NCBI GenBank assembly: GCA_027030405.1
Contig: JALVEZ010000101.1
Coordinates: forward strand, 1 to 33,001
From: Hydrogenothermaceae bacterium
GTDB taxonomy: Bacteria > Aquificota > Aquificia > Aquificales > Hydrogenothermaceae
Direction: 5' to 3'
DNA length: 33,001 bases
This document shows positions 1 to 6,000 of the stretch, piece by piece. A program made the position numbers. The first letter of the stretch is position 1, and each line of letters opens with the position of its first letter.

Positions 1-3000
1 AGATAAAAATTTTTATGATGGTTTAAAACTTTTTATAAAAAATTACAGCTTTAAAAAAGCATCGTGGAACGATATACAAAAATCTTTTGAAACTGTATCT
101 AAAAAGAATTTAGACTGGTTTTTTAAGCAGTGGCTTTACAGAAAAGGGATACCTCAGATAGAGATACAAAAGCCAGAAGTTAAAGTTTCTAAAGGCAAAT
201 TCTTAGTTTCTTTTGATATTGTGCAAAAAAATGAACCTTACATCTTAGGTATTCCAGTGGTTATAAAAACAGTTTTTGGTGATGTTAAGAAAGTTATCAG
301 ACTTTCAAAAAAGAAACAGAGTTTTAAACTTTATCTAAATGATGAACCGATCAAATTAGTATTTGATCCTGATTATGACCTGTTTAGGAGTTTATCAAAA
401 GATGAAAAACCTCCTGTTCTTTATGATTTTTTAGGTGCAAAAAAAGTGGTTTTTGTTGTTGATAATAAACTAATAAATAAATACCAGCCGCTTATAAACA
501 TATTTAAAAATCATCAGATCGTTTCACCTGAAAATCTGAATTATAAAACGATGAAAAATAACTACCTTATTTTCCTTGATAAAACAAATCCTAAAATAAA
601 ATTTTATTTTGGGGATGTTCAGTTCAGGCAGGATTTCCACCTTATCTCCAAGAAAAATCCGTGGGATAGTATAAAATCTGTATTGCTTATTAATGCAGTT
701 GATAAGTTTGAGATAAATATGATTTCTCGAAGGCTTAAACATTACGGAAAATATTCTGAACTGATCGGTAAAGATGGAAGGATTATTCAGAAAAAAGTTT
801 ATCCTTCAGAAAAGGGAATCAATGTAAACCTTAGAAAAAAGACCGTAGGCGTTTATTTACCTTTAGTTGAAGATATAAATACAATCATTTCAAACTTAGA
901 AAATGAGCGTATTGTTTACGTAGGTGAACAGCATAATAAGTTTTCCCATCATACAACACAGTTAGATATAATCAAGGGACTTTATAAAAAACATAAAAAA
1001 GTTGCCATTGGGATGGAGATGTTCCAGAGACCATTCCAGAAATATATAGATCAGTATATAAACGGGCAGATCGATGAAAGAACGTTCTTAAAAAAGACAG
1101 AGTATTTTAAGAGATGGGGATTTGATTATAACCTTTATAAACCAATAATCGACTATGCAAAAGAACATAAGATTCCTATTATTGCTTTAAATATAGAAAA
1201 AGAAATAACAAAAAAGGTTTTAAGAAAAGGGATAGATTCACTTTCAGAAGAAGATAAGAAAAAACTGCCTGAAGACATCGATTTTTCGAATATAAAATAC
1301 AAGGAAAGATTAAAAAAAATATTTTTTGAACATAAAGGATCAAATCATATGAACTTTGACTACTTTTATCAGGCTCAAGTTCTATGGGATGAAACAATGG
1401 CAGAATCAATTGACAAATATCTGAAAAAACATCCGTATTTCAGAATGGTTGTGATGGCAGGAAACGGTCATATTGCTTATAAAGATAGTATTCCTTTGAG
1501 ATGTTTTAGAAGAAATGGATTTTTCTTTAAAACTGTTTTAAACGATGAAGAAGAGGATCCAGAAATTGGAGATTATGTTGTATATCCGCAGGATTTAAAA
1601 GGTGAACAGGCTCCGAAGTTAGGTGTTTTAATTGAGGATAAAAATGGGAAAGTTATAATAAAAAAAGTATTAAAAGGTAGTCTTGCTGAGAAAATTGGGT
1701 TAAAAAAAGGCGATCAGATTGTTAAGATGAACGGTTATCCAATAAAGGATATATATGATTTAAAGATTGAGCTTTACTTTTTAGGTCAAAATGGAAAAGG
1801 GATATTAGTGATAAAAAGAGGAAGAAATTTAAAAGAGATAAATATAAACCTTGAAAAGTAAAAAATCGGGGAAAGCTTTCCCCGATTCATAAAAATTATC
1901 TGAGTAATTGCATAACAAGTTGAGGCTGTTGATTTGCCTGAGCAAGCATAGCCATACCAGACTGCATGAGTATTTGATTTCTTGTGAAATCTGACATCTC
2001 TTTTGCAAAATCAACGTTTCTAATACGGGATTCTGCTTCTGATGTATTTACTCTTGTTGTTTCATTATTTGAGATAATTTTTTCAAGTTCAATCTGTGCA
2101 GAACCAAACTGAGCTGCAATATCATCAACTGCTTTAATTAAATCATCTACAGTTTTTACAGAATCATTTGCACAAGCCTGTGAAGTAACATCAATAGTAT
2201 ATCCAGTAGCTCCAATAGTAACTAAAGAAGCAGATGCCATAGATGCACTTCCAGTAGCTGCAACAACTCCAGCACCAGCTGTAGCAGAAGTTACAGTTAA
2301 TTCTTGATCTGTTCTACCACCATAATGAATTGTAAATGTTGTAGTTGTTCCACTTGAGAAAAGGTTTTGTCCATTGAATTCAGTATCTTCAAATATCTTT
2401 TTAACAGAATCTATCAGCTTATTAATATCCTGCTGAATTTGAGCTCTTGATGTATCATCAGATGTGTTTGATGCCTGAATTGTTTTAGCTTTAACATCAT
2501 TTAATATGTTGTAAACTTCTGATAAGGCACCCTGTGCAATCTGAGCAATACTTACTCCATCCTGTGCATTTCTTGTTCCTTGATCTAACGAAATAGCATA
2601 TGTTTTTAACTGGTCTGCTATAAATAAACCTGCAGCATCATCAGCAGCTCTGTTTACTCTATAGCCAGTTGCTAATCTTTCTAAGTTTTTGTTCATATTA
2701 GCTTCTGTTTTTAGAAGATTAGCGTGTGTGAAGTCTGACTGAAAGTTGTAGTTAATTCTTAGTGCCATGACTAAATACCTCCAATTTTTTTGTTGGATTC
2801 TATTATCGGAGAGGTTTTTTGATTTTTTAGTCTTTATGTATCTTTTTTGAAAATGTTGATAAATCTTACTTATATTGTTTATATATTGTTTAATAGAAAA
2901 TGACAATACTTTGAAAAATTTGAAAAATTTAAGATTTTATATAAAATATTACAAACTCTAATGAGGAAGGTAATCTATGCAAAAAGCAGAAGCTAAAATC

Positions 3001-6000
3001 CCAAAAGGATATAGAAATACAAAGCAAAGACAGGCTATTTTAGAGATTTTAGAAAGTCTTGAAATTCCAGTTCATGCTGAAGACATATATATGAAACTAA
3101 AAGAAAAAGGAATGAATATAAGTTTATCTACAGTATATAGAAATCTTGAAATGCTTATGTCAGAAGGTATCGTAGTAAAATCCCATATGATGAATGAAGA
3201 TAAAGCAAGATACGGACTATCAGATAAAAAACATTTTTTAGTATGTGAAAGTTGTGGAAAGATACTGATAATAGACAACTGCCCATTTGATGTATTTAAA
3301 AAAGAGCTTATGGAAGTTCATCAGTTTGATATAACAGGGCACAGTATTGAAGTCTATGGAATATGCCCTGAATGCAAAACTAAGAATAAAAAGAAAATCT
3401 CTGCTTAACTTTTTTTAACAAACTCTTTAAAATTCTTTAAAAGTTGAAGTCCAGCTTTCTGACTTTTTTCAGGATGGAACTGGACTGCCCATACATTGTC
3501 TTTCTGTACAGATGAAACAAATTCCACAGAATAATCAGTCGTAGAAGCAACTATAGTTTCATCTTTAGGAACCACATAAAAAGAATGGACAAAATAAAAA
3601 AACTCATTTTCTTTTATATCTGAAAAAAGACCTTCTTCCTGTTTTTTATGAATCTGATTCCATCCCATATGTGGAACTTTGAAACCTTCTTTATTTTCAA
3701 ATCTTATTACCTTACCTTTAAAAATACCTAATCCTTCATGTTCACCAAATTCATATCCATATTCAAAAAGAATCTGAAGACCTAAACATATCCCTAAGAA
3801 GGGTTTTCCTTTTTCGATCGATTTAATGATTTTGTCTTTGAGTCCAAATCTTTCAAGATTATGAACCGCATCACCAAAAGCGCCTACACCGGGGACGATG
3901 ATACCTTTTGCATTTTCTACATCTTTTGGATCTGAAGATACTTTAACATCAAGTCCCACCGTTTCAACTGCTTTGGCAACACTTCTTAAATTTCCCATTC
4001 CATAATCAACAACTATAATCATTCAGTAAAACCTTCCTTTAGTTCTTTTACTAAGTTTTTCATACCTTCAGAATCTTTTTTACCCTGCAGTTTTACAATA
4101 GCACTTCCTACAATAACTCCATCAGCAATTTTTGATAACTGCTGTGTATGTTCTTTCTTAGAAACACCAAAACCAACTGCAACATACTTTCCTGTCAATT
4201 CTTTAATCTCTTTCACTTTATTTCTTAGTTCTTCCCACGGAAGAGTTTCCCTTTCTCCTGTGATTCCTGTAAGGGATACATAATATATGAAACTATCAGT
4301 TAAAGATCCAATAAGTCTCACCCTATTCTCATTGGAAGTGGGAGCAAGTAAAAACACAAGTTCTAATCCATGTTTATTTGCTATCTTTTTAAAGTCTTCC
4401 GATTCTTCAGGCGGCAAATCTGGAACAATAAAACCATCTATTCCGTTTTCTTTTGCCAGTTTGCAAAAATTTTCTTCACCGAAAACAAATATTGGATTGT
4501 AATATGTCATTGCTATCAGGGGCACATTGGGATTTTTTTCTTTTATCTCTTTTGTTATTTCAAAAACATTAATAGGTGTAATTCCATCTTTAACTGCTTT
4601 TTCATGGGCTACCTGAATGGTCGTTCCGTCTGCAACAGGGTCAGAAAACGGAACCCCAACCTCTAAAATGTCAGCACCAGAATCTATTAAGGCTTGGGCT
4701 GTTTCTATGCTATCTTTTACGGATGGATATCCTGCCATAAAATAGCATATTAAAGGTTTCTTTTTTTGGAAAATTTCTTTTATCAATTTATAAAACTCCT
4801 TTATGTGTAAACTTTCATAAGTTCTGCAGCTTTTCTGGCATTTTCTCTTGCTTCCATTAGCGAATCTGCAGTGGCAAGTGCTACACCCATTCTTCTTTTA
4901 GGTCTTGTTGTAGGTTTTCCAAAAATTCTGATTTTGGTATTTGGGATAGAGAGAGCCTGTTTTATACCCTCATAAGAAGGAGCAACTCCGTAGTCTTTGG
5001 CATGGAAACAGTAAGATGCACCTGTTGAAACGAGATCTATACTGATGGGAAGTCCCAATATTGCCCTTAAATGTATTTCAAACTCGGACATATTCTGAGT
5101 TACCATTGTAACCATTCCTGTGTCGTGTGGACGAGGTGAGATTTCGTTAAACCATACTTCATCATCTTTTACAAATAGTTCACATCCGAAAATACCATAT
5201 CCACCTAAAGCATCTGTAACGGTTTTAGCTATGTATTTAGCTTTTTCTATTGCAATCGGCGATACAGGTTGAGGTTGCCAGCTTTCCCAGTAATCACCTT
5301 CAACCTGAAAATGTCCAATCGGTTCACAGTATAAAGTCCCCTGATTTTTTGTTCTGACAGTTAAAAGTGTTATTTCAAAATCAAAGTCAATAAATTCTTC
5401 AATAATTACCTGTCCTGCTCCGCCTCTGGCATTTTCCTGTGCGTATTTCCATGCAAATTCTATATCCTCTTCAGAATTTAAAACAGACTGACCCTTTCCA
5501 GAAGAACTCATAACAGGTTTAACCACACAAGGAAATCCTATTTTCAAAACTTCCTCTCTAAATCTGTTGAACTCTTCAGCAAATGAATATTTAGACGTTT
5601 TCAGTCCTAACTCTTCTGCGGCAAGTTTTCTTATTCCGACTCTATCCATTGTGTATTTAACAGCTTTTGCAGAAGGTATTACAGTAAAACCTTCCCTTTC
5701 AAGTTCTAAAAGAACATCTGTGTTTATTGCCTCAATCTCAGGAACTATAAAATCAGGTTTCTCTCTATAGACTATATTCCTTATTTGATCAGCATTTTTC
5801 ATATCAATAACATAATATCTATGTGCAACCTGTTGGGCAGGTGCGTATTGGTAACTATCCACTGCAATAACTTCTATACCTATTCGCATTGCTTCAATGG
5901 CAAACTCTTTTCCAAGTTCACCACTACCTAAAAGCAGTATTTTGGTAGCATTATATGCCATCGGCGTTCCGATTCTCATGATACACCTCAAAATTGAATT

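Follow-up and report, generated by a model that had tools for sequence, protein, structure and literature searches.

Several described systems stand close to the locus considered here. MetR forms a divergon with metE and governs a regulon around the conversion of homocysteine to methionine (PMC4239095), btuB is placed under MetJ (PMC3228920), and B12 represses metE through the depletion of homocysteine (PMC3274233). Metals, peroxide and heme are the signals that the literature assigns to the Fur family (PMC11672702), and the regulatory site of one of them, Zur, combines a His-rich strand with a hinge Cys or Asp (PMC11672702, PMC4866751).

The protein discussed below is a Fur-family protein encoded in the window, i.e., the whole 33,001-nucleotide stretch of DNA that was analysed, from a Hydrogenothermaceae genome that we call G000; other G numbers denote compared genomes. 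Judging from sequence comparisons, it is very likely that this protein, and not a riboswitch, binds the operators and thereby regulates metE and the btuB operon, as well as metF in three genera. To this extent the claim of a first-pass annotation, that a Fur-family protein controls a metE-metF-btuB regulon, stands up well. Its further claim that the protein responds to cobalamin or cobalt is weakened by the retention of the gene in genomes without MetH, by the lost histidines, and by the precedent of MetJ and MetR.

A Fur-Family Protein of Apparent Zur Descent

The regulator gene (2977..3408, + strand) encodes 143 amino acids, and a purine-rich stretch preceding its ATG reads as a ribosome-binding site (2963..2970, +). 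The product scores 98 bits with PF01475 (cut-off 23.1), which places it in the Fur family, and its predicted structure (pLDDT 81) resembles the structures of Fur, PerR and Zur with E values of 1e-11 to 1e-8, a likeness that supports the fold only. The Fur fold rules out an identity with MetR or MetJ, which have LysR and ribbon-helix-helix folds; the likeness to them is in working logic only. G000 encodes three Fur paralogues, among which the window protein is distinct from the others, as first reported. The best match is PerR for one of these others (C222) and Fur for the second (C131), both below the NCBIfam cut-offs, while the window protein reaches at best 80.5 bits against a Fur/PerR cut-off of 220 and falls outside both PerR and Fur sensu stricto, the groups marked by a His/Asp/Glu iron site.

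What the first-pass annotation had missed is the apparent Zur origin of both the protein and its operator. The closest relatives found by sequence, up to 50% identical, are Zur proteins that clostridia encode within znuACB operons, and in the tree the regulator clade sits among them with an SH-aLRT of 93, the deeper forks being weak. Gene context suggests a zinc role for these relatives: Zn/Mn ABC genes occur at 42–48 of the 62 relative loci outside the family. The palindrome TGCAAAT-N-ATTTGCA, with two mismatches at most, lies upstream of znuA in 31 of 42 (control 0). By descent and by operator, the family protein would count as a Zur.

Its likely DNA-recognition helix (residues 49–57; 3121..3147, +), so assigned from Fur-family structures, includes S51, T52, Y54 and R55, all invariant in the aligned clade and its clostridial Zur relatives. 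The two CxxC pairs, C90/C93 (3244..3255, +) and C130/C133 (3364..3375, +), are invariant in 40/40 orthologues and correspond by sequence to the structural Cys4 zinc site of the Fur family. The regulatory metal ligands of Zur are, on the alignment, lost. Counted back from the first Cys, positions −6 and −4 are His in 54/57 and 57/57 of the relatives outside the family, and Lys (40/40) and Asn (39/40) within it. Residues 84–87 (3226..3237, +), which the alignment sets opposite the four-His metal strand of the M. tuberculosis Zur structure 2o03, read K-K-N-Y in 39 of 40 orthologues and K-K-H-F in the G000 protein, which keeps His86; the family orthologues have no Cys at residues 79–81, where Zur has its hinge ligand. 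The candidate ligands that remain in this part-vacated site, proposed from conservation, are C102 and D105 (C102-P103 with D/E at 105 in 40/40; 3280..3291, +) together with H122 and E125 (3340..3351, +; invariant in 40/40). The novelty of the case lies in this combination of probable clostridial Zur kinship, the same palindrome, and histidines that are now Lys or Asn.

An ordinary Zur is ruled out by the lost regulatory ligands and by the position of znuA outside the set of targets. No site with up to two mismatches was found at 31 of 31 znuA loci of the family, flanks of 1.5 kb included, which extends an earlier result on fewer genomes, or before zinc-uptake genes in 10 genome-wide scans. It is quite unlikely that the protein is still a metal sensor, for Zn or Co, which would use a site remodelled around C102, D/E105, H122 and E125 to match the zinc enzyme MetE and the import of B12 to the metal available. 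Such a sensor would suit the Zur ancestry and Zur operator, and no other Zur is present among the three G000 paralogues; both methionine synthases use zinc (PMC539065), and metE is up 2.3-fold in a Caulobacter zur mutant, no Zur site being listed for it (PMC4176598). However, the His ligands are gone and the znuA loci site-free, and metal-replete cells would shut off both MetE and B12 import at the risk of methionine starvation. A thiol or redox sensor, in which oxidation of C102 would release the DNA when oxidants inactivate MetE or MetH, is very unlikely: this fifth cysteine is invariant and MetE is sensitive to oxidation (PMC521173), but C102 is just as invariant in the clostridial Zur relatives, and the genome-wide scans found no stress genes among the consistent targets.

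Operators before metE, btuB and metF

The exact palindrome stands in G000 79 bp ahead of metE, at C129:1124, and ahead of a BtuB-like gene, at C114:6, where it had first been reported; a copy at C14:5510, with identical flanks and the beginning of this BtuB-like gene, marks an overlapping contig end. Chance alone would yield about 0.03 exact sites in G000, and the reversed-pattern control, 0 in the first analysis, again gave 0 matches, now in 178 genomes. G000 has one further intergenic site with two mismatches (C148:1324, score 21.3), and two more lie in coding regions.

The window contains no palindrome within two mismatches. The intergenic region between the regulator gene and a divergent flagellin-like gene (2769..2976) holds no operator in G000, its best matrix score being −0.9 against a training range of 16–30. 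The metF gene of G000 is also site-free, and the regulator gene is unlinked to metE, its targets lying on other contigs (metE on C129, the btuB operon on C114/C14). All three points had been entered as caveats in the first-pass annotation.

Among the other 49 family genomes, 38 have the exact motif. The palindrome precedes btuB in 27/27 cases, metE in 40/40 genomes that have the regulator or MetH, and metF in 19/48, spread over three genera. It precedes metH in 1/26 (G005, where it overlaps the metH promoter region), a count that rules out metH as the regular target that G005 had suggested; in 5/5 genomes, neither metK nor ahcY is preceded by one. Two near-sites in G025 lie within 123-bp repeats beside plasmid-like genes, and G023 has two extra matches inside coding regions.

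The operators are of two types. In front of metE and metF, O1 lies across the predicted −35 box and is centred near −39. O2 begins 2–3 bp past the predicted −10 box in front of metE, and the btuB site is of this type too. In G000, 6 additional bases interrupt the metE O2 (score 10.4). Both metE operators are found in 27/28 genomes with MetH and BtuB, and O2 in 0/12 of those lacking both; the MetH-less genomes are related, and these 12 cases perhaps stand for 3–4 independent events. O1 is retained in 12/12 assessable MetH-less genomes with the regulator, being the only site within one mismatch in 5/5 such genomes scanned, and is missing in 6/6 assessable genomes without regulator and MetH.

It is scarcely credible that PerR or some other factor binds the palindrome while the window gene is a bystander. 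The exact motif does occur in 19/128 Aquificota that have no orthologue. Hits of this kind had been recorded before, and the point missed was that they mostly precede peroxide-defence genes; at the 11 loci read in family f2, these are peroxiredoxins, cytochrome c peroxidase or an Fe-S oxidoreductase. The f2 genomes, however, carry a different PerR clade. In the Hydrogenothermaceae, A/T-rich palindromes stand in place of the motif at ahpC (6/6 genomes) and, in G000, at further peroxide genes, and 4/4 examined genomes without O1 and regulator still carry PerR and Fur. These tests largely rule out PerR as the binder of the metE/btuB palindrome.

Distribution and B12 Use

The orthologue is present in 41/49 other Hydrogenothermaceae genomes and 0/128 other Aquificota, so its confinement to the family persists in a larger set. 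The divergent layout with metE, which the first-pass annotation had also described, is found by coordinates in 31/41 orthologue genomes, 29 of them directly head-to-head and 2 with one gene inserted. The regulator is flanked by the btuB operon as well in seven genomes (G021, G022, G040, G043, G045, G046 and G047), and in G005, G013 and G026 a palindrome site has moved along with the regulator gene.

Genes such as metE, btuB and metF are typical targets of B12 riboswitches. The RF00174 cobalamin riboswitch is absent from 50/50 family genomes, in line with the earlier count, and a full Rfam scan of 16 target loci returned only tRNA and CRISPR repeats, which rules out riboswitch control; the predicted leaders, of about 30 nt, are too short for one. 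The BtuB-like C114 gene fits best to TIGR01779 (267 of 600 bits) and PRK10641 (256 of 836 bits), below the cut-offs of both. That it encodes a B12 receptor, as its first label suggested, is very likely, because it occurs only in MetH genomes (29/30, and 0/20 of the MetH-less ones).

No B12-binding domain above cut-off was found in the 20 MetH-less genomes, and the three tested for CobS and QueG had neither. The matches of MetH-less genomes to NrdJ models proved, in the 2 inspected, to be class Ia, with nrdB following in G042. The regulator gene is kept in 13/20 MetH-less genomes and lost in 7; its dN/dS of 0.02–0.07 in six unsaturated MetH-less pairs points to purifying selection. Among MetH genomes it is missing only in G008, which is 83% complete.

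Proposed Mechanism

From the observed site positions, co-occurrence, residue losses and purifying selection, we arrive at a tentative reading to which we give somewhat less than an even chance: the protein may be a repressor that senses homocysteine or Met/SAM status, B12 acting indirectly through MetH. Bound to its inherited palindrome, the Zur-derived protein would hold down metE, metF and the btuB operon; with O1 on the −35 box and O2 after the −10 box, bound protein should block transcription. The switch would be a methionine-cycle metabolite, either homocysteine, acting as inducer, or Met/SAM, acting as co-repressor. With B12 present, the fast and unregulated MetH would drain homocysteine, the repressor would stay bound, and MetE and B12 import would be off; with B12 absent, homocysteine would accumulate, the repressor would let go, and MetE, MetF and the importer would be made. 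Where MetH is gone, MetE would be the only route, the tight O2 would be lost, and O1 alone would give feedback. More speculatively, C102, H122 and D105/E125 may hold a zinc to which the thiol binds, and the carboxylate may go to K84/K85.

B12 alone is argued against as the signal by the regulator and O1 being kept in genomes without MetH, BtuB-like receptor and B12-binding domain, and the SAM variant is disfavoured by the site-free metK and ahcY. The loss of O2 together with MetH and BtuB agrees with a link to B12, as do all seven MetH-less genomes from which the gene has gone, and these points count against the metabolite reading. It also explains poorly why, in G020, G041, G042 and G044, the promoter appears shifted 6–7 bp off O1 while the regulator is conserved. 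G000 itself speaks against it too, with its unlinked gene, retained His86, interrupted O2 and site-free metF.

A direct cobalamin sensor is rather unlikely. Here the B12-bound protein would repress at O2-type sites, and MetH-less lineages would keep the B12-free form for activating metE from O1 or limiting its own gene. The riboswitch-typical targets and absent riboswitch, the loss of O2 in all 12 genomes without MetH and BtuB, and the clustering of the gene with the btuB operon would suit such a sensor. So would the weak metE −10 boxes and the altered promoters of regulator-less genomes, and an O1 near −39 could host an activator, which would rescue direct sensing. Irr, a heme sensor of the Fur family, offers a tetrapyrrole precedent (PMC11672702). 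On the other side, the protein would have to bind O1 but not the near-identical O2 and btuB sites without B12, and the matrix scores of the two groups overlap. Cobalamin-binding regulators of the CarH/AerR type have a B12-binding Rossmann domain; in the window protein PF02310 and PF02607 are absent at E 0.1. Moreover, nrdAB has no site in G021, the one genome with an NrdJ-type enzyme that was inspected, and in G005 a site overlaps the metH promoter region.

Leaving the choice of ligand aside, we hold it probable, with moderate confidence, that a horizontally acquired Zur and its operator were rewired into a sensor of an organic ligand (homocysteine or another methionine-cycle metabolite, or cobalamin), which would replace MetR/MetJ and the B12 riboswitch and control a half-MFS inner-membrane cobalamin importer behind btuB. 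If true, this would add amino-acid metabolites or B12 to the ligand classes of the Fur family, show the conversion of a metal site with ancestor, operator and changed residues all in view, explain the choice between MetE and MetH in thermophiles free of riboswitches, and point to a candidate new B12 transporter. In the largely open-access literature searched, no paper describing the regulator, the clostridial box or the half-MFS protein was found.

Comparison with Known Systems

MetR, a homocysteine-sensing LysR protein, resembles the family system in its metE divergon and in a regulon confined to the homocysteine-to-methionine step (PMC4239095), and mediates indirect B12 repression (PMC3274233). 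Unlike the family protein, it has an unrelated fold, is an activator, and covers metH and glyA, whereas the family sites suggest repression and omit metH in 25/26; MetR being an activator, the analogy extends to the signal only. MetJ, with SAM as co-repressor, represses metE, metF and, in a third of species, btuB (PMC3228920), but its fold and box are unrelated, and it covers metK and upstream biosynthesis, while metK and ahcY are targets in 0/5 genomes here. The cobalamin riboswitch has the same expected outcome, less MetE and BtuB with B12; here a DNA palindrome takes its place, RF00174 being absent in 50/50. Irr is, like the proposed regulator, a Fur-family sensor of a cofactor and not of free metal (PMC11672702), but the window protein reaches 28–30 bits where the cut-offs are 150–170, and the regulons differ. 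The clostridial Zur proteins of znuACB-zur operons (for example at loci L187, L192, L194, L212 and L217) share with the family protein the palindrome, the Cys4 site, the CP motif and H122, whereas the family protein has Lys and Asn for His, leaves the znu genes site-free, and appears to have turned to metE, btuB and metF.

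A Family-Restricted Fur Paralogue and Its Predicted Regulon

The ORF at 2977-3408 (+) encodes a 143-aa protein with a Fur-family domain. Its neighbours, both named by reading their translations, are a flagellin-like gene that is divergent from it and a hisH-like gene that converges on it. The genome (G000) has three Fur paralogues, this one included; for the remaining two the best-scoring models are PerR and Fur. Orthologues occur in 41 of the 49 other Hydrogenothermaceae genomes and in 0 of 128 other Aquificota, and named matches assign the clade to the Hydrogenothermaceae, so that the family restriction reported by the first-pass annotation is borne out. 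So is its observation that the genome holds, besides this gene, the palindrome TGCAAAT-N-ATTTGCA, which in exact form is expected 0.03 times per genome by chance and lies ahead of metE at a distance of 79 bp (contig C129) and ahead of a TonB receptor gene at 32 bp (C114; the same again at the end of C14).

Among the 50 family genomes, metE and metF are each present in 49, MetH in 30, and a BtuB-like receptor, which scores below BtuB cut-offs, in 29, all of them with MetH. Behind btuB lies the gene of a half-MFS-like membrane protein of 187 aa (locus L001:1873-2436, on C114), which is found in 28/30 MetH genomes and 0/20 others and tracks MetH even when unlinked from btuB. Since receptor and membrane protein are both confined to MetH genomes, a B12 role of the receptor is very likely. 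The membrane protein matched no Pfam or NCBIfam family; its predicted structure resembles half an MFS transporter (TM about 0.7), and it has more than 1000 homologues, Campylobacterota included. A BtuF-type binding protein was found in none of five genomes, and the 187-aa protein is a candidate for a new inner-membrane cobalamin importer.

With up to two mismatches allowed, the palindrome precedes btuB in 27/27 cases examined (two further genes without 5' ends were left out) and metF in 19/48, every case in genera g3, g6 and g7; by MetH status, the metF site is present in 19/29 MetH genomes versus 0/19 others. The proposed metE-metF-btuB regulon is supported, for metF in these three genera. 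At the same threshold metH has the site in 1/26, and ahcY and metK in 0/5 genomes each. Genome-wide one-mismatch scans of five MetH genomes returned the metE, metF and btuB sites plus four matches in coding regions or repeats. The assignment of this regulon to the regulator is strong. A cobalamin riboswitch was found in 0/50 family genomes, as had been claimed from fewer.

Two other occurrences may be recorded here. An intergenic two-mismatch site in G000 (C148:1324, score 21.3), between OsmC-like and RND-type exporter genes named from their translations, is possibly an extra target or a chance match. In G025, 123-bp direct repeats carrying near-copies of the palindrome adjoin plasmid-like genes (L326:3700-4050).

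Which Protein Binds the Site

The regulator gene stands head-to-head with metE in 29 of the 41 orthologue genomes, with one gene between them in two more, and in seven genomes btuB with its membrane gene, the regulator and metE form a single cluster. The metE site is lost in six assessable genomes without the regulator gene and MetH; PerR and Fur are kept in 4/4 examined genomes of this kind. G008, whose assembly is 83% complete, keeps the sites without the regulator gene. Counting against the regulator as the binder, the palindrome also occurs in 19/128 Aquificota without an orthologue. These carry a different PerR clade; in family f2 the palindrome precedes peroxide-defence or redox genes in the 11 loci read (L368-L378: peroxiredoxins, ahpC-trxB, cytochrome c peroxidase, Fe-S oxidoreductase), and in f3 and f5 its neighbours are mixed. 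In f2 the palindrome probably serves as the family's own PerR box and would have arisen by convergence on the clostridial Zur box. Before ahpC in Hydrogenothermaceae it is found in 0/6 genomes. We are highly confident in the predicted binding of the regulator to its regulon.

In G005, metH and the regulator gene face each other head-to-head, and a site covers the metH promoter (L066:1656-5730). Although their genera differ, G005 and G000 have MetH proteins that share 97% identity, which suggests that the B12 module was laterally transferred; MetE identities of 93-99% between genomes of genera g2, g3 and g7 likewise suggest frequent transfer of metE.

Origin and Metal Sites

The closest relatives outside the family (40-50% identity) are mostly from Bacillota, and 42-48 of 62 non-family loci contain all three Zn/Mn ABC transporter genes, which in most cases share an operon with the regulator gene. 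The same palindrome precedes znuA in 31/42 of their regions with at most two mismatches (18 with at most one; controls 0), whereas it precedes znuA in 0/31 loci of the Hydrogenothermaceae, in agreement with the first-pass annotation. It is therefore likely that the family obtained the protein along with its operator, from a clostridial-type Zur. The family clade (support 100/99) sits among the Zn/Mn ABC-linked relatives; the deeper forks are weakly supported and so do not fix the donor. The clostridial box, AATGCAAAT-N-ATTTGCATT, lies before znuACB-zur operons (L187, L192, L194, L212, L217, L246 and others) that often include TIGR03943 permease genes. We found no description of it in the literature searched; an excerpt of PMC545781 gives a related Zur box for Desulfovibrio.

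By function the regulator is probably not a Zur. It lacks the hinge cysteine typical of Zur, and the strand aligned to the four-His strand of M. tuberculosis Zur reads K-K-N-Y in 39 orthologues and K-K-H-F in the window protein; outside relatives keep His at two strand positions (54/57 and 57/57). Zinc sensing is accordingly less likely. A Cys4 site, C102, D/E105, H122 and E125 are invariant in 40/40 orthologues, H122 and D/E105 presumably being part of a third site. In M. tuberculosis Zur the four histidines alternate between two regulatory sites (excerpt of PMC11672702).

Promoter Anatomy and the Signal

Transcription starts of metE, btuB and metF are predicted. At metE, the right half of operator O1 provides TTGCAT, and a spacer of 17 bp leads from there to a -10-like hexamer that has a TG upstream of it; O2 starts 2-3 bp past this hexamer and in G000 consists of two perfect half-sites 7 bp apart. 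The metF site is of the O1 type and the btuB site of the O2 type; since the latter lies just after the predicted -10 box, a protein bound there would repress. Leaving aside G002, G011, G028 and G048 as non-assessable, O2 is present in 27/28 MetH genomes (G013 and G040 among them), and in MetH-less genomes that keep the regulator it is absent in 12/12 while O1 is kept in 12/12; these genomes are related rather than independent, with perhaps three to four loss events judged by genus and regulator distances.

Several promoters have features of their own. In G040 a transposase-like gene lies between metE and the two metE operators (L076:8034-9710), and the end of a similar element lies just before metF in G008 (L158). 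In g2, g4, g6 and g7 metF is apparently leaderless (L055, L057-L064, L169, L170, L180-L183), with a TATACT -10 box about 8 bp before the ATG and no ribosome-binding site.

Were B12 a required co-repressor, the regulator would never be bound in B12-less cells, and its gene and O1 should decay. The gene is, however, kept in 13/20 MetH-less genomes, with dN/dS of 0.02-0.07 in six unsaturated pairs (saturated pairs: pN 0.07-0.11 versus pS above 0.75), and O1 is its sole site in 5/5 scanned. A B12-binding domain over cut-off was found in 0/20 MetH-less genomes, CobS and QueG in none of three tested, and in the two genomes where NrdJ-model matches were inspected, these proved to be class Ia enzymes. 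The direct cobalamin responsiveness proposed earlier is therefore doubtful. A version in which the B12-free form activates from O1 would fit the finding that O2 loss coincides exactly with MetH loss, and the weak -10 boxes permit such activation; we hold direct sensing improbable. For both kinds of cell, the simplest shared signal is the status of the homocysteine-to-methionine step, and we tentatively favour a methionine-cycle metabolite over B12 as ligand, homocysteine or methyl-THF before SAM because metK and ahcY lack sites. In four MetH-less genomes the promoter appears displaced from O1, which neither model accounts for well. A redox signal is a less likely reading. A full-length MetB/MetY-type enzyme (PF01053) was not found in G000, G016, G021, G040 and G042, so these five probably make homocysteine by a non-canonical route.

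We found no description of this regulator in the open-access literature searched. As far as the excerpts of these sources go, a signal from the homocysteine-to-methionine step agrees with known systems: the regulator resembles MetR in its regulon and in the divergon with metE (PMC4239095), and MetJ in having btuB among its targets (PMC3228920); B12 can also repress indirectly, through homocysteine depletion (PMC3274233).
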